A DNA stretch of 64,000 nucleotides from Methanosarcinales archaeon. Its GTDB lineage: Archaea > Halobacteriota > Methanosarcinia > Methanosarcinales > Methanocomedenaceae. Within the stretch, counting starts at the first letter, position 1. The number at the start of each line of letters is the position of its first letter. The position numbers and the translations under genes were made by a program. The notes under the pieces were generated by a model. The model saw only the letters and a list, made by a program, of their open reading frames with translations, was not told the origin of the DNA and ran no database searches. The DNA lies in the NCBI GenBank assembly GCA_021108405.1, contig JAIOQW010000336.1, forward strand, positions 1,777 to 65,776, in the 5' to 3' direction. Shown here in pieces: positions 1 through 59,415 of this stretch.

Positions 1-2879
1 AGGTTAAATTTATTACTACAACATCTGATACACCAATACCAATAGATTTTCCTCAGCCTGTTAATGTGGTATTAGGTGAGGAAAATTCTGATAACTCAAT
101 TGATTCAGGTGAGAGGGTTGGCTCAGGTGAAAGTTATGTAAGTGGAAATGGGTCAGAATTCTCAAAACTAATGATCGACAATAATCTTACTGATATAGGA
201 ATAAGGGCAAGAACAAGTGGGCTTGAACTCGGTGATGCACCTGATCCGACATATCCGTCTTTACTTGCCAGTGATGGTGCCAGGCACAACCCGACCGATA
301 CGGAATGTTTTGGTTTGAGAAGTGATGGTGACTGGAAAGAGTCTGAACCGGATGCCAGGATTTCTGATTCTGACCCATTTGATGATGGGTTGAAAAATAT
401 TTTCATATTATCAGATAATTCCAGTCAAACAGTTACTTTTGAAGTAAGTGACCTTATGGCTCCATCATCAAATCTCATAGTTAACATCCTGATCGATTTA
501 AATAAAGACGGAGACTGGGAGGATCAGGGAGAACATGCTGTTTGTAACCAGCAAATAACAACAACCAATCAGGAAGAAGTAATTATTTCCGACCCCTTCT
601 CAACAATCGGGACAACCATGGGACCCACATGGCTCAGGATTACACTGACCAGACATGATATTTTAAATACGCCATGGGATGGAACAATGAGCGGATATGC
701 TCCTATGATTCCATTTGAATATGGTGAGACCGAAGATTGGGAGGTATATCTGATAGAAGAGGGGGCATTTGTCCATAATCTGAATACTGGTGAGGATTTC
801 TCAACGATCAATGCTGCAATAAATGATATTGATACAAAGGATGGTCATACGATCACTGTTGATCCCGGGACGTATTATGAGAATGTAATAGTGGACAAGC
901 AATTATCTATTCTTTCCAGTTCTGGGAATCCTGTGGATACGATCGTAACTGCAGTTGATCCGAACAATCATGTTTTTAATGTAACAGTCGGCCATGTTGA
1001 CATCTCAGGGTTAACAGTGACAAGAGCCAAACGCAGCTATAAAGCCGGGATATATCTTGGGAGTGGTGTGGATCGGTGTAATATTTCCAATAATGATATA
1101 TCTAATAACTTCAACGCAATCTACCTGGATTCTTCAAATAATAATATACTTTCAAACAACATGGTAAAATCGAATAACCTTAACGGTATAAGCCTGGATT
1201 CTTCAAATAGCAATACACTTAAGGATAATATTGCTACAGAAAATTTTGAAAACGGTATCAACCTGCTTAATTCCACTAGTAACACACTTACGGATAATGA
1301 TGCATCAGGTAATGCCTTTTCCGGAATCTTCTTAGGATATTCTGATGACAACATTATTAATAAAAACTCAGCAAACTTAAACGGTCTTGGTATCTATCTA
1401 CTGACTGCGTGCAATAACACACTCGTGGATAATTCAGCGTGTTTGAACTACTATGGTATTGAAGTATTATCTTCAAATACTAACATGCTTATAAATAACA
1501 ACGCATCAGGTAACTACTTCATCGGTATTCGTCTGTGTGATTCGAATAATAATACGATCATGAACAATTCAGCAAACTCGAGTGACTACATTGGTATCTA
1601 CGCGCTATTATCAAATAATAATACATTCACGAGCAACTCGGTAAACTCGAATGAATACTATGGCATCTCATTGGAATTTTATTCAAACAACAACCTTGTC
1701 TATAACAACTACTTCAATAACATACACAACGCCTATGATGATGGAATAAATATCTGGAACACAACAAAGACAATACGGACGAATATTGCAGGTGGTCCGT
1801 ATCTTGGCGGCAATTACTGGTCGGATTATTCAGGAAATGATATGGATGGAGATGGTCTTGGTGATACATTCATTCCATATAATTCCACTGGAGGAATTAT
1901 AAACGGCGGCGATTACCTTCCACTGGTCCATGTCGAATCGGTAAATGAAATAAATATATATGTCAACACGACTGGCTGGTGGCGCAAAGGCAGCGTATTC
2001 AATACAAGCTCAACACCGATACAGGCAGCGATAGATAATGCGATCAAAGGTGAGCATGTGTTTGTGTACAATGGCACATACACCGAGAATGTGAACATTA
2101 ACAAGCAGATCACACTGGAGGGCGAGGGGCCGGACAAGGTGAGTGTGACTGCAAAGTCGATATATCATGTATTTACAGTGAATTCAGACCGGGTGAATAT
2201 ATCAGGGTTCAATATTATTGGGAAGAAAAAAGATTCTGATAAATTTTATCCTGGTAATGACGGGATTGTTGTTTTAAATGATCATGGGAGTGATATAGAT
2301 CATTGCATTATTTCCAATAATAACATCTCGTACAACTGGAATGGCATTCAACTGTGGACTTCAGGTAACAATACGCTCATGAACAATAGTGTTTCGAACA
2401 ACTGGAACGGCGTCTTCTTGAGATCTTCAAGTAACAACATGCTCAATAACAATAGTGTTTCGAATAATTGGAACGGCGTCTTCCTGGAATCTTCAAGTAA
2501 CAACATGCTTATGAACAATGACTTCTTATGCAACTGGATTGGCTTACACCTGGGAACTTCAGGTAACAATACGCTCATAAACAATAATGTTTCAAATAAC
2601 ACTAACGGAGTCTACCTGCGTCTTTCGAGTAACAACATAATCTATAACAACTACTTCAACAATATAATGAATAACGTCATAGGTCATAGAGACAACATCT
2701 GGAACTCAACAAAGACAGCGGGTACGAATATAGTAGGTGGCCCGTATCTTGGTGGTAACTACTGGTCTGATTATATTGGTATTGATACGGACGAAGATGG
2801 AATAGGAGATACGGATCTTCCATATAATAAAAGGATAAGTAGTGGCGGTGATTATTTGCCTCTGATCCCGGAGGAATAA
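1..2879 (+). CDS. Cell-surface protein, probably 5'-partial: GEVED-like domain followed by two right-handed beta-helix (PbH1/NosD-like) modules
   Basis: The frame is open from nt 3 to the TAA at 2877-2879. The track ORF 66..2879 starts at an internal GTG, so the true start probably lies upstream of the window. GDAPDPTYPSL..GARHN ... YGETEDWEV resembles a GEVED domain. Dozens of N..SNN/GI.L rungs are present. Each module ends in GGPYLGGNYWSDY.G.D.D.DG.GD..PYN...GGDYLPL. Confidence 0.75.
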   Translation, partial: VKFITTTSDTPIPIDFPQPVNVVLGEENSDNSIDSGERVGSGESYVSGNGSEFSKLMIDNNLTDIGIRARTSGLELGDAPDPTYPSLLASDGARHNPTDTECFGLRSDGDWKESEPDARISDSDPFDDGLKNIFILSDNSSQTVTFEVSDLMAPSSNLIVNILIDLNKDGDWEDQGEHAVCNQQITTTNQEEVIISDPFSTIGTTMGPTWLRITLTRHDILNTPWDGTMSGYAPMIPFEYGETEDWEVYLIEEGAFVHNLNTGEDFSTINAAINDIDTKDGHTITVDPGTYYENVIVDKQLSILSSSGNPVDTIVTAVDPNNHVFNVTVGHVDISGLTVTRAKRSYKAGIYLGSGVDRCNISNNDISNNFNAIYLDSSNNNILSNNMVKSNNLNGISLDSSNSNTLKDNIATENFENGINLLNSTSNTLTDNDASGNAFSGIFLGYSDDNIINKNSANLNGLGIYLLTACNNTLVDNSACLNYYGIEVLSSNTNMLINNNASGNYFIGIRLCDSNNNTIMNNSANSSDYIGIYALLSNNNTFTSNSVNSNEYYGISLEFYSNNNLVYNNYFNNIHNAYDDGINIWNTTKTIRTNIAGGPYLGGNYWSDYSGNDMDGDGLGDTFIPYNSTGGIINGGDYLPLVHVESVNEINIYVNTTGWWRKGSVFNTSSTPIQAAIDNAIKGEHVFVYNGTYTENVNINKQITLEGEGPDKVSVTAKSIYHVFTVNSDRVNISGFNIIGKKKDSDKFYPGNDGIVVLNDHGSDIDHCIISNNNISYNWNGIQLWTSGNNTLMNNSVSNNWNGVFLRSSSNNMLNNNSVSNNWNGVFLESSSNNMLMNNDFLCNWIGLHLGTSGNNTLINNNVSNNTNGVYLRLSSNNIIYNNYFNNIMNNVIGHRDNIWNSTKTAGTNIVGGPYLGGNYWSDYIGIDTDEDGIGDTDLPYNKRISSGGDYLPLIPEE

Positions 2880-2990
2880 AATCCTCCCTTCGGTCGGATT
2901 TTCTTGACTGAAGCTTCGAAGAAGCTGAAGATTAAAAAATGTGACCGAAGTGAGCATTTTTGATATATCAAGTTATACTTGATATACTAT
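2878..2990 (+). repeat. Interspersed three-hairpin element, family A, copy A1
   Basis: Starts inside the stop codon of the upstream CDS. Composed of AAAATCCTCCCTTCGGTCGGATTTT (hairpin), AGCTTC-GAA-GAAGCT (hairpin), AGATTAAAAAATGTGA..GAGCATTTT, and ATATCAAGT-TAT-ACTTGATAT (palindrome). Related copies lie at 5127, 15525, 16262, 44743 and 57220. Confidence 0.9.
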
Positions 2991-3035: not shown

Positions 3036-4022
3036 ATGAAAAAAAGAAATCAATCAAACGATATACCTGCAGCCGTATGGCCAGGGCAAGACCTGCTTAA
3101 TAGTAAACCAGTAGGATCACTTACTATAATCTTTCGTACTATAGGATGCTACTGGACCGGATGTACGATGTGTGGATTTTACAATGAGAGTGCAATAACA
3201 CCACCTACAGAGGATGATCTTTTATCTCAACTTGAATATGCTATTAGAAAAATGGAACCTCAGACCAATCTTTTTAAGATATTCACATCCGGTAGTTTTT
3301 TTGATAACAGGGAGATATCACCTTCTACAAGAAACCTGATACTTGAACGTATTGCCAGTACGGGTACTATAAAAAAAATAGTAGCTGAAACACGTCCTGA
3401 ATTTATAAATAAAAACACTCTTTCCAGTGCCCTTGAGACACTTGAAAAATATAATGTAAAGCTTGAGGTCGCTATGGGGCTTGAAACCAGCAATGATGTT
3501 ATCAGGGATGAATGTATTAATAAAGGATTCAATTTCACTGATTTTGTTAAAGCTTCCGGTATAGCCGGTGAGATGGGAGTATCTACTAAAGCATACCTAT
3601 TATTAAAGCCACCATTGTTATCTGAAAAAACAGCAATAAATGATATGCTGGCATCTATCAAAGATACCATACCCTATTCCTCAACGATCTCATTAAATCT
3701 TTGCAATGTACAACGAGCTACGAAAGTAGAAAGGCTTTTTAATAAAAAGGATTACCGTCCTCCCTGGCTCTGGAGTGCGGTGTTTATTTTAAGTAAGGCA
3801 AAAAAGATGTTTCCTGATGTAACGTTTATGTCTGACCCGGTTGGTGCAGGTGCAAAACGTGGTCCGCATAATTGCAGAAAATGTGATAAAGATGTAGCCC
3901 AATCACTTCGTGATTTTTCTATTACCCAGGACACGAATATATTATCAAATGTAGACTGTGACTGTTACTATCTATGGGAGAAAGTGATTGAGCTTGAAGA
4001 TTTTGCTTATGTACCTTATTAG
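3036..4022 (+). CDS. Radical SAM protein (archaeal TIGR01210-like family; possibly the archaeosine-pathway RaSEA type)
   Basis: 328-aa ORF with the Cys cluster GCYWTGCTMCGF near the N-terminus and a TIM-barrel-like remainder. The family assignment is from memory of the motif only. Confidence 0.55.
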   Translation: MKKRNQSNDIPAAVWPGQDLLNSKPVGSLTIIFRTIGCYWTGCTMCGFYNESAITPPTEDDLLSQLEYAIRKMEPQTNLFKIFTSGSFFDNREISPSTRNLILERIASTGTIKKIVAETRPEFINKNTLSSALETLEKYNVKLEVAMGLETSNDVIRDECINKGFNFTDFVKASGIAGEMGVSTKAYLLLKPPLLSEKTAINDMLASIKDTIPYSSTISLNLCNVQRATKVERLFNKKDYRPPWLWSAVFILSKAKKMFPDVTFMSDPVGAGAKRGPHNCRKCDKDVAQSLRDFSITQDTNILSNVDCDCYYLWEKVIELEDFAYVPY

Positions 4023-4423
4023 ATCAAGAATTTGATCAGGTCTTTACTTAGACGTGTTTCCATTTCCAGGCGAGAACGGATATCCTCATCTGATATCCCA
4101 TCTATTCTAAGTTCAGTGATCCGGTCAAATATCTGGGGCTTTATCTCATAATATTCATTGATATCCTTTCTGTGACCCCAGACATCTCCTTCAAGTAGTG
4201 TAACATTCTGCATTTCCAGGAACATTTCAGTTGATTTGGATAGTGTCTTTTTATAAGAACTTGGTACATGTATGGCTTTCAAGCCGGGACATGTCTGAAC
4301 AAGAGTAAAAATATCTTTATTTGATGGTCGAAAAGCCATGTGTACTATCTCTTCACTGTCTCCAAGTGAATCTATTTCTTCTTTAGAACTAACAACTCTA
4401 ATTTTCATATTTTTTACCTGCAT
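4019..4423 (-). CDS. Conserved hypothetical protein
   Basis: 134-aa ORF, convergent with 3036..4022 and overlapping it by 4 nt. A more likely start is the internal ATG at 4408 (MKIRVVSSKEE...). No domain recognised. Confidence 0.5.
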   Translation of the reverse strand: MQVKNMKIRVVSSKEEIDSLGDSEEIVHMAFRPSNKDIFTLVQTCPGLKAIHVPSSYKKTLSKSTEMFLEMQNVTLLEGDVWGHRKDINEYYEIKPQIFDRITELRIDGISDEDIRSRLEMETRLSKDLIKFLI

Positions 4424-4547
4424 TTTTTAAAAATTTTTTTTGAATTCTTTTTTAATAATTAATAGTATTTAATAGGTTAATATTGTTTAAATATTAGCCC
4501 ACATATAAATATCTTTCCCTTTTAACAGTATCTCCAAAAAACTTTTT

Positions 4548-4633
4548 GACACTGATTTCGCAGATACATCCACCTTTCATGAAGGTGAATGCCTGCAACG
4601 CTTACAAGGGCGTGCAGGGAAAACAGATTTTTT
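4548..4633 (+). repeat. GC-rich double-hairpin element, family B, copy B1 (divergent)
   Basis: ACACTGAT..CAGATACAT, then hairpin CACCTT-TCATG-AAGGTG, then hairpin CCTGCAACGC-TTACAA-GGGCGTGCAGG, then AAACAGAT plus a T-run. The architecture matches 5363..5497, but the first stem has a different sequence. Confidence 0.8.
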
Positions 4634-4851
4634 AAGTCAAAATGCTAATTTGATGATTTCCATTGTATTACAGGTATAAATAACCATTCCGGAATAAATC
4701 AGATTTCAACCTTATCGATTATTTCTTTCATACATCGAGTATTTTGAAAGGAAATTAAGTAATTTGTTAGATCTTATGTACCATCTCATCCTGAAAGCCA
4801 TATTGCTATAATATCCTGGAGATCGGCTATGGACATTAAGTGTCCTCTTAC

Positions 4852-4986
4852 TCAAATATCTTTTAACCAGTGATGAATAGCATCTTGACCATCATCATCC
4901 ACAACCCACGTTGCACCACCTGCCACATTCACTAGAGCAAATACTATTGTGACTGTAACCACCAGCATTGGTAACAATCGTATCAT
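4852..4986 (-). pseudogene. 44-codon relic: signal peptide plus the first residues of a beta-helix surface protein
   Basis: GGAGG lies 8 nt upstream of the ATG at 4986. The ORF reads MIRLLPMLVVTVTIVFALVNVAGGATWVVDDDGQDAIHHWLKDI*. The ATWVVDDDG opening is typical of the N-termini of NosD-like surface proteins, but the ORF stops after 44 codons. It could instead be a genuine small secreted peptide. Confidence 0.35.
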
Positions 4987-5126
4987 AATGCTGCCTCCAT
5001 ATGCGTATTTAGATTATCCACCCTACTGTTATCATCTCTAAATAATTCCGCTGCTTTTAGCTCTTTGTCCTCAACTACGATTAAAGACATTATTGAATTT
5101 ATTAAAAAGTAAAATATACTGTTTTT

Positions 5127-5185
5127 TATAGTATATTAAGTATAACTTAATATACTCAAGAAAATCCGACCGAAGGGAGGATTTT
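5127..5185 (-). repeat. Family A element, short copy A3
   Basis: TATATTAAGT-ATA-ACTTAATATA palindrome followed by AAAATCCGACCGAAGGGAGGATTTT. The central module is missing. Both palindrome arms carry matched changes (C to T, G to A) relative to the other copies. Confidence 0.85.
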
Positions 5186-5362
5186 GTTCTAGTTATATCC
5201 TTTAATATAATCCTCTTAATACAATTGTATACTACATTAATACTATTTAAATAAAAACTTTTTTCACCTATTTCACTACCTCACAAAATTTTTATATACA
5301 AATGGCACTATCCTAAAAACCAGTTATTTCAATAGAGGATTATTTAAATCGATAATTTCATA

Positions 5363-5497: not shown

Positions 5498-5568
5498 AAG
5501 GTTGTTGTGGTCGATATCATAGGATTCCATTAAGTTTGTGATAGAAGGTATTTGATCAAAATCAAATC

Positions 5569-5601
5569 GGTGTTAATCCGTGTAAATCCGTGTCTGAAAA
5601 A
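5569..5601 (-). repeat. Family B terminus (phased octamers)
   Basis: GGTGTTAATCCGTGTAAATCCGTGTCTGAAAAA. ATCCGTGT occurs twice at a 10-nt spacing. ATCCGTGTCT is the inverted complement of AGACACGGAT at 5362-5371. Confidence 0.75.
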
Positions 5602-14937: not shown

Positions 14938-15458
14938 TTCTCTATATTATTTTCATATAGCACCCAACCCGATGAATCAATTTTTCCATTTGGTAGTATT
15001 ACTATTGTTCCATCATCAGTTTTAATACGTGTTTTTCTCAATGTTACATCAAATATTTCTCCACTGTGACCCATGGTTTTGATACTATCTCCTATATTGA
15101 AATGTCTATCTAATAAAAGAAATACACCCGCAACTGCATCAGCCAGAATATCCTTAACAGCAAGAGCAATTGCAGCACCAACAAGAACAGATGCTCCCAT
15201 AAGTGGTAGAAAGATCTCTTCTAAATTTAATTCTATAGTGGTGTACATCAAGACAGCGAAGCATAAAAGATATATTACGATCCTTCGCAGGAGGAATTGT
15301 ACGTCTATAGGTAAAAGTGTATTATTCAGCAATCGCTTAATAAACCTGCTAATTAAAGTAATTATAAAAAAAGCAGCGATTATAACTAATATAACTTTTA
15401 CATATGGTAAAATTTCTTCATACTCATTAAGAAAATTCATATTTTCTGATACATTCAT
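14934..15458 (-). CDS. Small MscS-family mechanosensitive channel-like protein
   Basis: Three N-terminal TM helices, then LLLDRHFNIGDSIKTMGHSGEIFDVTLRKTRIKTDDGTIVILPNGKI, which is the MscS beta-domain signature. Confidence 0.6.
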   Translation of the reverse strand: MNVSENMNFLNEYEEILPYVKVILVIIAAFFIITLISRFIKRLLNNTLLPIDVQFLLRRIVIYLLCFAVLMYTTIELNLEEIFLPLMGASVLVGAAIALAVKDILADAVAGVFLLLDRHFNIGDSIKTMGHSGEIFDVTLRKTRIKTDDGTIVILPNGKIDSSGWVLYENNIEN

Positions 15459-15524
15459 TTCTATTTCCTCATTTTATTCCACTGGTGTCGGACTCAAGTA
15501 AAGGAATCTTCGTATTTATCTGTT

Positions 15525-15668
15525 ATTTCTTTTTATAGTATATCAAGATAACAATAGGAACAAAATCCTCCCTTCGGTCGGATTTTCTTGACTGAAGCTT
15601 CGAAGAAGCTGAAGATTAGAAAATGTGAAACATTTTCGATATATCAAGTAATACTTGATATACTATAC
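15525..15668 (+). repeat. Family A element, copy A2, with 14-bp terminal inverted repeats
   Basis: TATAGTATATCAAG (15525-15538) and CTTGATATACTATA (15654-15667) bracket the core AAAATCCTCCCTTCGGTCGGATTTTCTTGACTGAAGCTTCGAAGAAGCTGAAGATTAGAAAATGTGAAACATTTTCGATATATCAAGTAATACTTGATAT. Confidence 0.9.
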
Positions 15669-15858
15669 AAAAATTTCAATAATTACTTATATGATTAATA
15701 CTTAAGCAAACTCACACATAATAGCAATCGATGATGTTTCTGATTTTATTCAGGTCAATGGATATGGATTCGCAGAGAAAAAACTTGAAAATCCAATATT
15801 CATGGAGGGGATAAAAACGCAAATTGTAAATGATTGTTATTAATTTGGAGGATAAGAA

Positions 15859-16233
15859 ATGAAAAAAAATATACAAATAACAGCAATTCTTATGGCACTT
15901 GCAATATTTGGATTGTGCGCACTTATTGCCCCTGTTTGCGCAGATTCTGAGGCTACAGATGCCGAAGAAGTAGTTGCTGAAGACGAAGGAAACGCAAGTA
16001 ATGAATCAGAAGCTGCAGACGCAGATGCAGACTCTGAAGCAGCAGATGCAGATGCAGACTCTGAAGCAGCAGATGCAGTTGCAGACTCTGTAGCAGTAGA
16101 CGCAGATGCGGACTCTGAAGCAGCAGTTGCAGATAATGATTCCGAAGATGCAGAACCCTCACCAGGCTTTGGCATAGTCGCTGTAATGATCTCAATGGCA
16201 GTATTATTCCTATTAATTAGGAAGAATGAATAA
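15859..16233 (+). CDS. Small secreted acidic repeat protein with PGF-CTERM-like anchor
   Basis: GGAGG lies 8 nt upstream. The signal peptide is MKKNIQITAILMALAIFGLCALIAPVCA. The D/E/A/S-rich body has 9-aa repeats (DADADSEAA). The C-terminus is SPGFGIVAVMISMAVLFLLIRKNE. Confidence 0.75.
   Translation: MKKNIQITAILMALAIFGLCALIAPVCADSEATDAEEVVAEDEGNASNESEAADADADSEAADADADSEAADAVADSVAVDADADSEAAVADNDSEDAEPSPGFGIVAVMISMAVLFLLIRKNE
16018..16152 (+). repeat. 27-nt in-frame tandem repeat (4 good units plus 1 degenerate)
   Basis: GAYGCAGATGCAGACTCTGAAGCAGCA units at 16018, 16045, 16072 and 16099, and a degenerate unit at 16126. Confidence 0.9.
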
Positions 16234-16259
16234 AGAGCCTTATGGCTCTTCTTTTTTTT
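16233..16259 (+). terminator. Hairpin plus T8 terminator-like signal
   Basis: AAGAGCC-TTAT-GGCTCTT followed by C and eight T, starting within the stop codon of 15859..16233. Confidence 0.6.
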
Positions 16260-16261
16260 AA

Positions 16262-16389
16262 ATATATCAAGTATAACTTGATATATCGAAAATGCTCACT
16301 CTGTTCACATTTTCTAATCTTCAGCTTCTTCTAATCTTCAGCTTCTTCTAATCTTCAGTCAAGAAAATCCGAGCGTTAGTGAGGATTTT
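16262..16389 (-). repeat. Family A element, copy A4
   Basis: ATATCAAGT-ATA-ACTTGATAT, AAAATGCTCACTCTGTTCACATTTTCTAATCTTCAG, three tandem TCTAATCTTCAGCTTCT-type units, then AAAATCCGAGCGTTAGTGAGGATTTT. Confidence 0.9.
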
Positions 16390-16426
16390 GTTTCAAAAAA
16401 TTGTTGAAATAATTAATGTTAAACAA

Positions 16427-16439
16427 AACCTTTAAATTA
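16427..16439 (+). promoter_or_regulatory. BRE/TATA-like motif AACCTTTAAATTA (copy 1)
   Basis: Identical 13-mer to 16707-16719, but ~155 nt upstream of tRNA-Met with no ORF in between. Confidence 0.4.
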
Positions 16440-16592
16440 AAGAATAACATTACAAGGAGTCGAAAGATAACGGATATAATGTTATAGAACTTTAATCGTG
16501 AAGTCACCGTCTGTTAAATATCTTTTACGGCGTACATCAATCCGAATGTCAAAGGTTTTTAAGACCTGTTGACAGCGCATAAGCTTCCAAGG

Positions 16593-16667
16593 GGGCCTAT
16601 AGCTTAGTCAGGTTAGAGCGCCCGGCTCATAACCGGGCGGTCACCGGTTCAAATCCGGTTAGGCCCA
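16593..16667 (+). tRNA. tRNA with anticodon CAT (elongator Met or Ile2; not initiator-like)
   Basis: Manual cloverleaf: GGGCCTA/TAGGCCC acceptor, anticodon stem CCCGG/CCGGG, loop CTCATAA, T-arm ACCGG-TTCAAAT-CCGGT, discriminator A. 75 nt with no encoded CCA. It lacks the GGG/CCC anticodon-stem signature of initiators. Confidence 0.9.
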
Positions 16668-16706
16668 TAACGATCAATAATTTATCCCGAGTACCGCATT
16701 GAACAC

Positions 16707-19859: not shown

Positions 19860-20656
19860 ACTTCGGATTTAATGTTAAGGGGATCAGTTTATCATCTACT
19901 GCAGCCAATGCGACCACAAGGTCATTTGATTGGGTCTATGATCTGGAAGATATGGGATTTACCGGATGGGAGATCGTTTGTGAGGGAAATCAGGCTCTAA
20001 GTAAGAAGAACATGCCTGAAGTATTAAAAATCATCGAGACCACTGATCTCACTCTTACTATCCACCTACCCTTCTCTGATCTGAACCTTGCCAGTCTTAA
20101 TGACCCTATATGGAATGAGACTATCAGGCAAATGAAAGATTATATTGAACTGGCATCGCCTTTTGCAAGGCTTGCAGTAGTACATCCTGGTCATCTCTCA
20201 CCTCTTGGTATGCAGTTACCTGACATGGCATGGCAGAGGAATATTGAAGGACTGAGAGTTTTATGCGATCATGCGGCGCAGTTTGATATGACCGTTGGTG
20301 TTGAGAATATGGTCAATATGCATTTTATCTTTGGTAAACATGCAGAGGAAATGCTCGGAATGATCGAATCAGTTGACAGGGATAATCTCGGTCTGACCTT
20401 TGATGTGGGACATGGTAATACTAATAAGGCTGTGGATATTTTTATTGAGAAGTGTATTGATAAGATTGTGCATGTACACCTTCATGATAATAACGGAATA
20501 CGGGATGATCATCTTCCGGCAGGGAAAGGTATGATCAACTGGGCAGGGGTTGTTGATAGACTGAGCAGATTAGATGTGCAGTTCGTATTAGAAGCGCGAA
20601 GTGTTAATGATGGTAAAGCCAGTATTAATTTTCTTAGATCACTTGTAATTGATTAG
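19856..20656 (+). CDS. Sugar phosphate isomerase/epimerase (xylose isomerase-like TIM barrel)
   Basis: Start overlaps the pyrH stop (ATGA). Motifs are VHPG, VENM, FDVGHGN and HLHDN. Confidence 0.6.
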   Translation: MNFGFNVKGISLSSTAANATTRSFDWVYDLEDMGFTGWEIVCEGNQALSKKNMPEVLKIIETTDLTLTIHLPFSDLNLASLNDPIWNETIRQMKDYIELASPFARLAVVHPGHLSPLGMQLPDMAWQRNIEGLRVLCDHAAQFDMTVGVENMVNMHFIFGKHAEEMLGMIESVDRDNLGLTFDVGHGNTNKAVDIFIEKCIDKIVHVHLHDNNGIRDDHLPAGKGMINWAGVVDRLSRLDVQFVLEARSVNDGKASINFLRSLVID

Positions 20657-43236: not shown

Positions 43237-43330
43237 CTTAAATCCGTGTAAATCTGTGTTACTTGCACGCCCCTTAGGCGTTGCAGGCATTCAACTCCGC
43301 AGGAGTTGAATGTATCCGTGTCTGAAAAAA
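43237..43330 (-). repeat. Family B element, copy B3
   Basis: Its reverse complement is nearly identical to unit a of B2: AGACACGGATACATTCAACTCCTGCGGAGTTGAATGCCTGCAACGCCTAAGGGGCGTGCAAGTAACACAGATTTACACGGATTT. Confidence 0.9.
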
Positions 43331-44742: not shown

Positions 44743-44904
44743 ATAGTATATAAAACATAACTTTATATATCTAAAATGCTCACTCGGTTCACATTTTCTA
44801 ATCCTCCATTCTTCGGGAATGTCGGACGAAGATTCTTTGAATCTTCTAATCCTCCATTCTTCGGGAATGTCGGTAAAGAAAATCAGACCGAAGGGAGGAT
44901 TTTG
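44743..44904 (-). repeat. Family A element, copy A5 (expanded central module)
   Basis: TATATAAA-ACATAAC-TTTATATA palindrome and AAAATGCTCACTCGGTTCACATTTTCTAATCC. Two copies of TCTAATCCTCCATTCTTCGGGAATGTCGG flank the hairpin GAAGATTC-TTT-GAATCTTC. Ends with AAAATCAGACCGAAGGGAGGATTTT. Confidence 0.9.
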
Positions 44905-44951
44905 TTTTAGATCTATTAGAGGTCTATCTACAGGGATAAGGAGAAATAAAT

Positions 44952-47429: not shown

Positions 47430-47519
47430 CATTATACTTTTTTATACATTAAGAACAGTAATATAAATGTTTATTTGTGGTGGGTATAACTGTGAAAATA
47501 ATAGAAGAATCATGAAATT

Positions 47520-55964: not shown

Positions 55965-56749
55965 TTATTTATCGAAATCAAATAATAACCATTTCCACAT
56001 GGGAACATATTTTATCTTGAATCCCTTTATCTCTTCTTCACTTTCGAAATCGTCTGTGATTATGAGTCCTTTCGTCAATTTAAACTCCTTCATAGCCCGT
56101 ATCAATGATCTTATTTCCCTTTCCTTTGTTTCCATACTGGTGATGCCATGACAGACCTGAATCAACTGTATCACGTCCAGGCCTTCCTTTACAACAAAAT
56201 CAACTTCTCTTTGCTGGTAATCCTTCCAGTAATATATCTCGATCTGTGGATTGAACGATTGTCTTTTTTTTAATTCTACTGCTATGATGTTCTCCATGAT
56301 CTTGCTGAGATTTTCCAAGAACCTGATACGATTACTTTTGCCTCGCTCCGCTCATGCACCCCTCTTGCAAACCTTTCCCACTCCGGGATATTCTGTATCT
56401 CATCTAAAAATATGAAAGGTTTGCTTTTCGGTTTTACTTTTTCCAGATAGGTGTTGTAGGTATCTATCATTAATTCAAGATTTCTTTGCCAGTAACGTTC
56501 GTCCTCAAAATTAACTATAAGGGTGTCAGCATTTTGCTGATCGATCAATTGTCTGGCGATCTGTTTTATAAGAGTTGACTTCCCGCTTCGCCTAATTCCT
56601 GCTATGCAGATTATCTGGTTTGTTTTTGTAATAAGGCTTATAAGAGTGTTCAGGTATTCTTTCCTTGTTATCCCTGTATTTATTTCCTTAGCCCAAAAAT
56701 TCCAGTCTGAAAGGATTTCGATTATCTGGTTTTTTTGTATCCACTTCAA
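55965..56749 (-). pseudogene. AAA ATPase (DUF4143 family) with internal deletion and frameshift
   Basis: Track ORF 56282..56749 has the P-loop GIRRSGKSTLIKQ and Walker B FIFLDEIQ, and ends ..VIVSGSWKISARSWRTS*. The overlapping ORF 55965..56318 in another frame resumes at ..ENLSKIMENIIAVEL...YYWKDYQQREVDFVV...VPMWKWLL. The ~150 aa normally between these parts are absent. Confidence 0.75.
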
Positions 56750-56790
56750 AAAGTATGGTATTTTGACATTTGTGATCGGTTAAGGAATTT

Positions 56791-56880
56791 TAATCCGTGT
56801 TAATCTGTGTTACCTGCACGCCCTTTAGGCGTAGCAGGCACTCAACTCCGTAGGAGTTGAGTGTATCCGTGTCTGAAAAA
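56791..56880 (-). repeat. Family B element, copy B4
   Basis: TAATCCGTGTTAATCTGTGTTACCTGCACGCCCTTTAGGCGTAGCAGGCACTCAACTCCGTAGGAGTTGAGTGTATCCGTGTCTGAAAAA. The stem of hairpin 1 carries a C:G pair where B2a and B3 have T:A. Confidence 0.9.
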
Positions 56881-56984
56881 ACATTTTTTGACTTTATCAA
56901 GATTACTTTCTATTCTATATAATGTATAACCCTGGATAAGAATCGTAAACAATGTACACTTTCTTGTTAGAATGTACTTTTTTT

Positions 56985-57015
56985 TAGACACAGATTAACA
57001 CGGATTTACACAGAT
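56985..57015 (+). repeat. Three phased octamers ACAC(A/G)GAT (family B terminus, opposite orientation)
   Basis: TAGACACAGATTAACACGGATTTACACAGAT. The octamers recur at exactly 10-nt spacing. Confidence 0.8.
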
Positions 57016-57219
57016 TTTTCAAGAGGCAATATTTCATTAAAAAAATTAGTAAATTATCATGATTCTTAAAGAGGTACTAATTACCCTTAGATTTGAAGTG
57101 GATACGTTTTTTTGCATAATTTACTATTATGTGGATTAAATATTTAAGTTTTTAGTTCACATGTGGGTTAAAAACCGTGTTTTTAGATTTATTTGTGGGT
57201 TAAAATTATAGATTTTTAA

Positions 57220-57321
57220 TAGTATTTCAAGTATAACTTGAATCGACAATACTTTGAATTTTCTAATCTTCGGCTCTTTTAAGAGCCTCAGTCAAGAAAA
57301 TCCGACCAGAGGGAGGATTTT
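57220..57321 (-). repeat. Family A element, copy A6
   Basis: TTCAAGT-ATA-ACTTGAA palindrome, TTTTCTAATCTTCG, the hairpin GGCTCTT-TT-AAGAGCC, then CAGTCAAGAAAATCCGACCAGAGGGAGGATTTT. Confidence 0.9.
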
Positions 57322-57373
57322 ATTCTAGTCGCTGACCTAAATCCTTTTATCATACCAGGATATTCTATATCAT

Positions 57374-58614: not shown

Positions 58615-59415
58615 ATGAAAAATCCGGAACATGACCCTAATTTATTAGAAATAGAAAAAAGAATAGGATACCATTTCAAAGATAAAAATCTGGGTATTAC
58701 AGCAATAACTACTCGTGCATACTCTAATCAACACCCCGAATGTACAGATAACCAGGCAATGGAATACCTGGGAGATGCCGTATTATCTCTTGTTATTGCT
58801 GAACTATTATACGAAAAATGGATGCATCTTAAGGATAATGAAGCTTTCCTGGACCTGACACCGGAAGGCGTAATGTCAAAGATAAGGCAGGAGATAGTAA
58901 ATAACCAGTATCTATCTGACTGTGCAAACAAGCATGATCTATGTAAATATATCTACAATTGTCCTGATGACCATAGTGCTCGTAACAGCAATCTGACCAT
59001 CTGTTCCGGTGGTGATATTATTGAAGCTTTGATCGCTGCAATATATCTTGATAATAGCAAATTAGTTACCAGAGCAAAACGGTTTATCCTTGATTTTCTA
59101 AATATCTCAAATCTTCTTAATAATGAACCAAAACTGATCGAAGTTGTAGTACAAAAGAATCATAAAGATGTACTGATCCATAAATACCAGAAATTGAACC
59201 GATATACTCCTGTTATCGAGTATCCTGAACTTGAAGACAGGTTAAATAAGCATGATAATACCCATCATTTTGTACTTGGGATATGTATTGATGGCATACT
59301 ACTGCCAGGGGTAACAGGAGAAGGACTAAACAAAGCTGCTGCCGAGCTTGAAGCAGCAAAAGTAGCATACCAGTTCTTAGAAGCAATCGAGTGGGATCTT
59401 TCAAAAATCCATTAA
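58615..59415 (+). CDS. rnc: Bacterial-type (class 1) ribonuclease III with C-terminal dsRBD
   Basis: NQAMEYLGDAVLSLVIAELLY is the RNase III signature. The second catalytic block is GGDIIEALIAAIYLD. The dsRBD is ...HHFVLGICIDGILLPGVTGEGLNKAAAELEAAKVAYQFL. Confidence 0.75.
   Translation: MKNPEHDPNLLEIEKRIGYHFKDKNLGITAITTRAYSNQHPECTDNQAMEYLGDAVLSLVIAELLYEKWMHLKDNEAFLDLTPEGVMSKIRQEIVNNQYLSDCANKHDLCKYIYNCPDDHSARNSNLTICSGGDIIEALIAAIYLDNSKLVTRAKRFILDFLNISNLLNNEPKLIEVVVQKNHKDVLIHKYQKLNRYTPVIEYPELEDRLNKHDNTHHFVLGICIDGILLPGVTGEGLNKAAAELEAAKVAYQFLEAIEWDLSKIH

Follow-up and report, generated by a model that had tools for sequence, protein, structure and literature searches.

Locus and copies of Family A

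We analysed a window of 64,000 nucleotides (64 kb) from the genome of a Methanosarcinales archaeon of the Methanocomedenaceae (assembly GCA_021108405.1, contig JAIOQW010000336.1, positions 1,777 to 65,776 of the forward strand; the coordinates below count from the first nucleotide of the window). Its genes are those of an ordinary chromosome, with ArgRS, NAD kinase, Sua5, Trm5, TiaS, NosD-like surface proteins and acetyl-CoA synthetase among the products. The subject of this work is Family A, a short interspersed element built from hairpins, of which the window holds exactly six copies (A1 to A6) according to nhmmer searches with whole-element and per-module profiles. Five of them match the pattern of the terminal hairpin at three mismatches or fewer, against an expectation of zero (0 in 100 shuffles), and the sixth, A4, has a variant hairpin. 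The palindrome P and the segment GAAGATTAGAAAATGTGA both occur in the window far above chance. The six copies listed in the original prediction are all present, at or near the positions assigned to them there.

The copy that had been flagged for study, A3, lies at 15558-15665 on the forward strand. It is a long form of 108 bp that runs from GAAC to ACTA, and its boundaries come from comparison of the filled site with the empty site of a related contig, L051. The interval flagged at first, 15525-15668, contains this real copy but also takes in flanking sequence. Read on the forward strand, A3 consists of the hairpin H1 (15562-15586, AAAATCC-TC-CC-TTC-GG-TC-GGATTTT), whose outer stem has 7 bp and inner stem 2 bp, with a 2x2 TC/TC internal loop between them and a loop of 3 nt; the hairpin H2 in its allele a (15596-15610, AGCTTC-GAA-GAAGCT); a hairpin H3 with its loop deleted (15620-15636, AAAATGT-GAA-ACATTTT, the full form being AAAATG-TGAACGGAGTGAG-CATTTT); and the palindrome P (15639-15663, ATATATCAAGT-AAT-ACTTGATATAC), followed by the terminal TA at 15664-15665. 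The adjoining A-run, the target of the insertion (15666-15673, forward strand, TACAAAAA), is flanking DNA outside the element and reads TAAAAAAA at the empty site of L051.

The profiles gave a lone extra match in the window, a half-palindrome on the reverse strand at 15530-15547. This sequence, TTTTTATAGTATATCAAG, is a weak module match and equals, in reverse complement, the right P arm together with the A-run. A diverged version is already present at the empty site of L051, and the half-palindrome is probably the remnant of an older copy, outside A3.

Further copies were sought in other genomes, as the original prediction had proposed. A scan with the hairpin pattern, covering one genome per species, found at least 40 loci, mostly in 'ANME-2 cluster archaeon HR1', that is Candidatus Methanomarinus sp. 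HR1 (ANME-2b, Methanocomedenaceae), and otherwise in further metagenome-assembled genomes (MAGs) of anaerobic methanotrophic (ANME)-2 archaea and other Methanosarcinales. Profile searches brought the number to about 60 copies in roughly 300 kb of these loci, whereas viral contigs gave 0 matches to the H1 pattern. The window itself is ~88-95% identical to HR1 across syntenic stretches.

Insertion sites

Two pairs of filled and empty sites define the element. The first concerns A3. The gene order ArgRS-PurS-GATase-ORF-MscS-[A3]-small PGF-tail gene-[A4]-tRNA-DUF2124-inositol phosphatase-NAD kinase is kept in three relatives, and the A3 site is filled in the window and in contigs L053 and L050 and empty in L051, where MscS is 82% identical. 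The empty junction of L051 reads ...AAGATAACAATAG^TAAAAAAAATTCAATAAT (also written ...CAATAG^TAAAAAAAATTC, or ...AAGATAACAATAG^TAAAAAAAATTC). In the window the same left flank, ...AAGATAACAATAG, is followed by the element, GAAC...GATATACTA, and then by TACAAAAATTTCAATAAT, so that the sequence continues with TACAAAAATTTC after the element. The gene between A3 and A4 (15859-16233, forward strand) encodes a small secreted protein with a signal peptide, acidic ADSEAA-type repeats and a PGF-CTERM-like tail, without a Pfam match, and the two copies stand inverted on either side of it. They do not form a composite transposon, because A3 is younger than A4.

The second pair lies inside a gene. In contig L037 (Methanosarcinales CSMAG_508) a 61-bp short copy is inserted in frame in a gene for a 'transposase-like protein', and about 90 homologs of this protein are without the 20-residue insert at that point. 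It is the sole copy out of about 60 that is crossed by an open reading frame (ORF), namely that of the interrupted host gene. At the DNA level, L048 and L049 are empty and read ...TACGAAACACAAAA^TGAAAAAGTCAGG, whereas in the filled L037 the flank ...TACGAACACAAAA is followed by the element, GAACAAAATCC...CTTGATATACTA, and then by TGAAAAAGTCAGG; the empty junction of L048/L049 can also be given as ...ACACAAAA^TGAAAAAG, compared with GAAC...ACTA in L037. The target at the L037/L048 site is TGAAAAA. The interrupted protein (L037 3551-3622 and flanks) and its relatives (P0001-P0092) form a 'transposase-like' family of ~155 residues with a C-x2-C...C-x2-C zinc ribbon and an ELDELWTFVKK motif; the query fragment has no Pfam match and many members come from short metagenome contigs.

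The element boundaries are identical in both pairs. A target-site duplication, which had been proposed as a check, is absent: neither of the two reconstructed sites shows one of more than 1 bp. Both empty sites, and the 3' side of 44 copies, share the target ^T(A/G)AAAAA, with insertion immediately 5' of the A-run and in one orientation. Because the A-run is already there at the empty sites, the 'A-tail' of the family is a target preference and lies outside the element. Its presence before insertion also led us to reject retroposition with an A-tail, as well as the reading of the similarity between head and tail (AGAACAAAA compared with ATAAAAAA) as a target duplication. In L050 a second variant element of 60 bp is located between the first copy and the same A-run, from which it follows that the target outlives an insertion and is reused, giving tandem copies. 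Two other candidate empty sites were discarded: the comparison of window 47484-47512 with L035 6094-6159 is unusable, as it may represent an ambiguous remnant or a deletion, and in the region upstream of the radical-SAM gene (3036-4022) the relatives differ in synteny.

Spread by recombination at A-rich microhomologies, through gene conversion or template switching and without a dedicated transposase, should also be considered. Hairpin alleles and modules are indeed exchanged at orthologous sites, the element head ACAAAAT resembles the empty site ACAAAAT|G of L048, and no transposase was found. Yet the two targets are unrelated except for the A-run, and the boundaries are nevertheless identical to the base, with the same orientation in ~44 copies, which is the pattern of a site-specific enzyme. 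Recombination as the sole means of spread is therefore extremely unlikely in our view. We are confident that Family A is mobile but non-autonomous, with the boundaries and the target given here.

Architecture and size classes

The element runs from 5'-GAAC (rarely CAAG) to ACTA-3'; 4 nt separate its 5' end from H1, and 2 nt separate P from its 3' end. The left junction is TTTTTTTA|TAGTATATCAAG... and the right junction ...GGATTTTGTTC|. When copies are aligned on the hairpin (n=55), the 5' boundary is sharp: information content rises from ~0 upstream of (W)A to ~2 bits at GAAC and further inside, and the GAAC beside H1 is invariant in 48-55 of the 55 copies. At the 3' end (n=44) conservation extends through ...ATATACTA, is weaker over a 7-nt A-run and then drops to ~0; the consensus of the 3' flank in these 44 copies is T-A-A-a-A-A-A. 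Terminal inverted repeats are absent according to both the sequence logos and the two filled/empty pairs, the termini GAACAAAA... and ...GATATACTA not being complementary.

Three size classes can be distinguished. The short class (22 copies) has a core of 61 bp with H1 and P. The long class (about 12 copies) has a core of 116-117 bp with H1, H2, H3 and P. In the extended class (several copies, up to about 360 bp) a unit of ~49 bp, composed of H2 and a GAAGATTAGAAGATTC-GTA-GAATCTTC linker hairpin, is present up to six times. With lengths from 61 to about 360 bp, all copies are too short for a transposase. The modules named in the original prediction, H1, H2, H3 and P in our nomenclature, do exist, but they are not universal: A2, as a short form, has H1 and P only.

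The H1 consensus is AAAATCC-TC-CC-NNN-GG-TC-GGATTTT. Its outer stem is invariant and the 2x2 TC/TC internal loop conserved, the inner stem occurs as the alleles CC/GG or GC/GC, and the loop triplet is free to vary across copies (TTC, TCT, TAT, TAC, TCC, TTT, TCG). H2 exists as three alleles, AGCTTC/GAAGCT, GGCTCT/AGAGCC and CATTCC/GGAATG, which are unrelated in sequence although each is self-complementary. The inner arms of P have two main alleles, CAAGT/ACTTG and AATC/GATT, both symmetric. Full-length H3 is identical at ~21 of 25 positions to the reverse complement of H1, and the end hairpin of the second short element in L050 (H1b) is the exact reverse complement of H3. H3 is thus a flipped copy of a second H1 subfamily. 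Because of this relation, the long form at minimum energy pairs H1 with H3 in a single long stem that H2 caps, beside the P hairpin, and does not form the three separate hairpins that had been proposed.

This arrangement would also suit a classical MITE (miniature inverted-repeat transposable element), moved by a DDE transposase that cuts at the H1/H3 inverted repeats of ~25-30 bp, with P and the A-run as the preferred target. The two repeats are ~80% identical, the long form makes one long stem, and A3 as a whole seems to be flanked by inverted P halves. However, both reconstructed insertions contain P and stop at ACTA rather than at H3, and the L037 insert and the second L050 unit are short forms without H3. 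There is also no target-site duplication, and the true termini GAAC and ACTA are not inverted repeats. A MITE of this type is highly unlikely to account for Family A.

The other window copies illustrate the size classes. A1 (2874-2989, forward strand) is a long form of 116 bp with H1, H2 allele a, H3 and P; its head, GAAT, provides the TAA stop codon (2877-2879) of ORF 66-2879. A2 (5129-5189, reverse strand) is a 61-bp short form, H1 plus P, with a matched C>T / G>A change in the P arms; its DNA fold has -12.7 kcal/mol (z = -5.6). The 14-bp terminal inverted repeats formerly ascribed to A2 are in fact the internal palindrome P, and its true ends, GAAC.../...ACTA, are not inverted repeats. In A4 (16260-16394, reverse strand, 135 bp) H1 is the variant AAAATCC-TC-AC-TAAC-GC-TC-GGATTTT and the H2 region is replaced by a tandem array of 17 bp x 2.8 (16312-16358). 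A5 (44744-44907, reverse strand) is, at 164 bp, an extended form in which the linker hairpin GAAGATTC-AAA-GAATCTTC separates two allele-c units of H2. A6 (57220-57325, reverse strand) is a long form of 106 bp with the H2 allele GGCTCTT-AA-AAGAGCC, degenerate H3 and P. Next to A2, the region 4423-5127, which separates it from a DUF1699 gene (4019-4423), holds only short broken ORFs, such as a 44-residue signal-peptide-like fragment (4852-4986). It resembles pseudogene debris, and the similarity to the relative contig L044 also stops near 4525.

Folding and covariation

The fold energies of the long form are far below those of shuffled sequences, with -39 kcal/mol for RNA in the sense direction (z = -6.0), -33.2 for antisense RNA (z = -4.7) and -22 for DNA (z = -6.3). 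Among the local hairpins covariation is upheld: 95.6% of the cells in 19 long forms are paired, six pairs are doubly changed, and the covariation score was reached by 0 of 500 shuffles, while pairing falls to 27-47% in slid controls. H2 is 100% paired, with three of four scored pairs changed on both sides, and P in the 22 short forms shows four doubly changed pairs (AU10/UA10, CG11/GC10). The matched changes in the P arms that had been quoted earlier are real: they are ATATTAAGT/ACTTAATAT in A2 and TATATAAA/TTTATATA in A5. The statement that the central module always folds does not hold, since the 17-bp x 2.8 array of A4 has z = -0.06.

Covariation does not extend to the long-range H1::H3 stem. 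It is 95.5% paired, with zero compensatory changes and no better score than shuffles, and we rejected it as a selected structure; the pairing reflects shared ancestry of H1 and H3. Paired positions show no consistent strand asymmetry either, the commonest non-canonical cell in P being C-A in the sense strand, i.e. G-U in antisense. Recognition of the hairpins and palindromes at the DNA level fits these pairing data better than a single-strand-specific RNA.

Selection on RNA should nevertheless be weighed, for instance if the copies were structured small RNA genes or precursors, either omega-like guide or scaffold RNAs for TnpB-type nucleases acting in trans or antisense regulators. The strong fold z-scores (-6.0 sense, -4.7 antisense), the existence of compensatory changes and the higher stability of the sense fold through G-U pairs in the H1::H3 stem would agree with this, and the right ends of IS200/IS605 elements are known to encode RNAs of the guide/scaffold type. 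The H1::H3 stem carries its G-U pairs without compensatory change, though, and no strand is consistently favoured, as the C-A cell of P shows. Outside the element there is no conserved promoter, the information in the flanks being ~0, and module content is too variable for a single RNA. Pfam searches of the neighbouring ORFs found no TnpB near any copy, and there was no Rfam match to the element: at the gathering threshold Rfam 15 returned three tRNAs only for the window, and with E<=1 in the region 15450-16450 it gave chance matches without meaningful overlap with a copy. A function as small RNA is very unlikely. The window also contains an ORF with RNase III domains (58615-59415, forward strand; PF14622, PF00636). 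Bacterial-type RNase III is uncommon in archaea and would cut long hairpins of the Family A kind if these were transcribed.

Position relative to genes

Copies were described earlier as lying right after stop codons or just upstream of starts in either orientation. Many copies do lie so, and their orientation follows no rule with respect to genes. By rough ORF calls, the hairpin side faces 23 gene starts and 18 ends, and the palindrome side 27 starts and 14 ends. Positions near stops or 7-40 nt before ribosome-binding sites are expected from the A/T-run preference, because such runs occur in terminators and leaders. When both neighbours could be called (40 copies), 17 copies sit between divergent gene starts. 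A resemblance of H1 to the anti-Shine-Dalgarno sequence, which had also been noted, looks coincidental, as only the CCUCC core is shared. A role of this kind was rejected: the genes have their own ribosome-binding sites, and H1 is too far from the starts (27-93 nt in the nearer cases).

The copies might still be cassettes maintained by the host as bidirectional terminators or insulators, promoter carriers or mRNA-stabilising hairpins, with mobility as a means of delivery only. Several features would suit such a role. On both strands a T4 stretch comes after H1, the flanking A-run gives T5-8 when read from the opposite strand, A4 adjoins a terminator-like hairpin with T8 of the gene at 15859-16233, and P includes a TATA-like GATATAT. 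Many copies either have a ribosome-binding site and start codon 7-40 nt beyond their end or begin at a stop codon, and the A4 site is still occupied in four genomes, down to 82% protein identity. Against this, the orientation counts (23/18 and 27/14) show no rule, 17 of the 40 copies lie between divergent starts, where terminators are unneeded, and the A/T-run target is by itself enough to explain why copies lie near starts and stops. A3 is missing from L051 despite the same genes and spacing, and orthologous copies lose or swap whole modules, P and H3 included. In a scan of 15300-16700 with a terminator consensus, only the gene's own hairpin plus T8 at 16233-16250 was called, and neither H1 nor P. 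We consider host-maintained cassettes unlikely. Because A3 is dispensable in L051, no orientation rule exists and target preference explains placement, we treat effects on neighbouring genes as by-products.

Possible mechanism of mobilisation

In view of the above, Family A is probably a non-autonomous, palindrome-associated mobile DNA element of ANME-2 archaea that is moved in trans and comes closest to the palindrome-associated transposable elements (PATEs) and to the repetitive extragenic palindromes (REPs) and their hairpin-forming doublets (REPINs). The original prediction had left the choice between a functional RNA or DNA element and a non-autonomous mobile element. The mobile option is borne out by the two filled/empty pairs, dispersal over ANME-2 MAGs, the copy in frame in the transposase-like gene and the lack of coding capacity, whereas the functional options receive no positive support and the MITE-like detail does not stand.

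The mobiliser would be an enzyme that acts in trans and reads the end hairpins in single-stranded DNA, such as an HUH/Y1 transposase of the IS200/IS605 type or of the REP-associated tyrosine transposase (RAYT) type. We infer this step because the features match the definition of PATEs, GAAC and the hairpin doublets recall REP/REPINs, and the alleles stay self-complementary. In such a scheme the bottom strand would be the active one, with TTTTT(Y)A as the left target, P as the left-end hairpin and H1 followed by GTTC as the right end. Recognition of hairpin shape could account for the self-complementarity of every allele of every module. Once inserted, copies change rapidly: the ~49-bp core unit grows and shrinks, short direct repeats (ATTTTC) mediate deletion of the core, and hairpin alleles are swapped between copies. 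Effects on neighbouring genes, with T-runs and hairpins acting as terminators or A1 supplying a stop codon, would be by-products. That an HUH transposase carries out the mobilisation step is, in our judgement, about evenly balanced, leaning slightly to the negative. The defined target and known end hairpins make Family A a direct substrate for candidate single-strand transposases of these genomes.

Several observations weigh against this proposal. A partner transposase was not found: in Pfam searches none of the 50 window ORFs matched a transposase or integrase, and the 142 ORFs near other copies (loci L001-L049) contained no transposase family represented more than once; a RAYT-like gene was not found in the window or the 53 loci either. 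A phmmer search of all ORFs in ~330 kb with approximate IS200/IS608 TnpA queries had no match, which is a weak test on a small sample. H1...P pairs split by a gene-sized gap yielded no full-length element, in a search that was too noisy. The end hairpins H1 and P are unrelated in sequence, whereas IS200/IS605 ends usually resemble each other, and the 2 and 4 nt between hairpin and end are less than the characterised IS608 has. The orientation of copies relative to local GC skew is 23:17 (p=0.43), without the expected lagging-strand bias, local skew being a poor proxy for replication direction. The covariation comprises a few discrete alleles per hairpin and thus few independent events, and intrastrand templated repair can keep DNA palindromes symmetric without selection. 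Finally, two insertion events were reconstructed in all.

After Radical_SAM, the commonest Pfam families among the 142 ORFs near copies are archaeal ATPase families, AAA_14 (7), ATPase_2 (6), DUF4143 (4) and DUF234 (3). The AAA_14/DUF4143 ATPases were rejected as partner, as their position relative to the copies is inconsistent. The AAA_14 gene next to A6 (55968-56779) is split.

In another reading, Family A would supply the repeats in an archaeal REPIN/RAYT-like or TnpB-guide-like partnership: a domesticated single-copy HUH transposase, or an RNA-guided nuclease acting in trans, would sustain a stock of hairpin elements in the genomes of ANME-2, with some copies exapted at A/T runs to serve as bidirectional terminators or promoter cassettes. 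To our knowledge no partnership of that sort has been described in archaea, and we regard this option as doubtful, with little probability attached to it.

Comparison with known elements

Full-text literature searches found no earlier description of Family A in ANME archaea or Methanosarcinales. Family A is a new family of an already known kind of element; it represents no new class of system or regulatory RNA. The best model for the palindrome-associated mobile element proposed above is offered by the PATEs of Haloquadratum walsbyi, which are derived from IS200/IS605, have near-terminal palindromes without terminal inverted repeats, make no target duplication, have a short targeting oligonucleotide and are too short for a transposase (PMC3119063). 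Terminal-only PATE versions of 52 bp arise when repeats mediate the loss of the core, and other small elements insert in the palindromes (PMC3119063). Family A likewise has no terminal inverted repeats, carries palindromes near both termini (H1 at 4 nt and P at 2 nt) and inserts without target duplication beside a short conserved oligonucleotide, T(A/G)AAAAA. It is too short for a transposase, its 61-bp short form may be compared to the 52-bp terminal-only PATE, and a small element is inserted in one of its hairpins (the H1 loop in L050). Differences are the host (ANME-2/Methanosarcinales), the lack of relation between H1 and P, the absence of an identified IS605-type relative in ~330 kb, and a core in which a hairpin unit varies in tandem number and the end hairpin recurs as a second, inverted copy.

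With REP/REPIN sequences Family A shares an imperfect palindrome next to a conserved tetranucleotide (GAAC in Family A and GTAG in REP), inverted doublets whose fold is one long hairpin (H1 with H3 in the lowest-energy fold), mosaic units, an intergenic location and a high copy number. In contrast, no RAYT-like gene was found in the window or the 53 loci, and Family A carries at its other terminus a palindrome unrelated to the first and inserts at a defined A-run. We know of REP/RAYT systems only from bacteria. The BOX elements of Streptococcus pneumoniae (boxA-boxB(n)-boxC) are similar in that constant modules form both ends and the central module is repeated in tandem 0 to 6 times, and they too are rich in secondary structure and intergenic. 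However, there is no sequence relation, the ends of BOX are inverted repeats, the BOX element is regarded as MITE-like, and the host belongs to another domain.

Prokaryotic MITEs have been reviewed (PMC10969869) and surveyed in a census (PMC11602168), and an internal minisatellite has a precedent in a bacterial MITE (PMC4596501). Like classical MITEs, Family A is small, non-coding, multi-copy, intergenic and probably mobilised in trans, and an internal tandem array is precedented. It differs by the absence of terminal inverted repeats, H1/H3 being internal with P outside them, and of a target-site duplication. A census based on terminal inverted repeats (PMC11602168) would miss it.

Turnover after insertion and genome rearrangement

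Orthologous copies differ in their internal modules. The A4 site is occupied in four genomes (the window, L050, L051 and L053): the window has the 17-bp array, L053 has two different H2 alleles plus linker, L051 is without P and H3 and has the other H1 allele, and the L050 ortholog contains an unrelated element of ~150 bp with terminal inverted repeats inside the H1 loop. From the latter it appears that small elements target Family A hairpins, as in haloarchaeal PATEs. The terminal inverted repeats of this ~150-bp element (L050 1762-1909, reverse strand) are 16 bp long (GCTGTCCCAAAACTAA), and a GTTA duplication is possible. In the window A5 is an extended copy, while its HR1 ortholog (L035) is a short derivative fused at the direct repeat ATTTTC, with the other H1 allele. 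A6 is a long form in the window, and in HR1 (L005) a 61-bp short form with a type-2 palindrome and identical flanks. These differences point to a combination of tandem-unit slippage, repeat-mediated core deletion and exchange between copies. Polymorphisms in presence and in module number could serve strain tracking.

Two of the six window copies are located at synteny breakpoints, A5, inside which synteny with HR1 L035 stops, and A1, which relates the family to genome plasticity. In contig L044 (Ga0255426_10222), which is ~91% identical, window position 20649 is joined directly to 3029, 40 nt past the end of A1, and this rearrangement puts a xylose-isomerase-like gene beside the radical-SAM gene.

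ANME-2 archaea, which control marine methane release, are uncultured and known only from MAGs. Short-read contigs of the same strain as the window (L041, L042 and L043, 99-100% identical) end inside A5 and in or near A2, and we therefore see Family A as a cause of breaks in ANME-2 metagenome assemblies; its density of ~1 copy per 10 kb in the window helps explain their fragmentation. The element was also found on contigs labelled as bacterial, from Anaerolineales SFP3_US_05_5 (L012, L020, L023, L030, L033, L036) and Desulfobacterales C00003106 (L018). Over 1.3 kb, L033 shares 93% identity with L037, a contig of a Methanosarcinales MAG, and the AAA_14/DUF4143 ATPase encoded on L018 resembles the one on L011. 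In view of the match of L033, the bacterial-labelled contigs are probably mis-binned ANME-2 contigs, and Family A can help to detect such cases.

A second repeat family was noticed in the window. It consists of decamer doublets, AATCCGTGT(T/A)AATC(C/T)GTGT, at 56715-57100 and also at 5565-5593 and 43241-43259, and includes one perfect 19-bp inverted pair (56792-56810 / 56988-57006) with its members 177 nt apart. The stretch of ~390 bp with this pair is missing from the HR1 ortholog L005 and looks like an insertion polymorphism of another small element.

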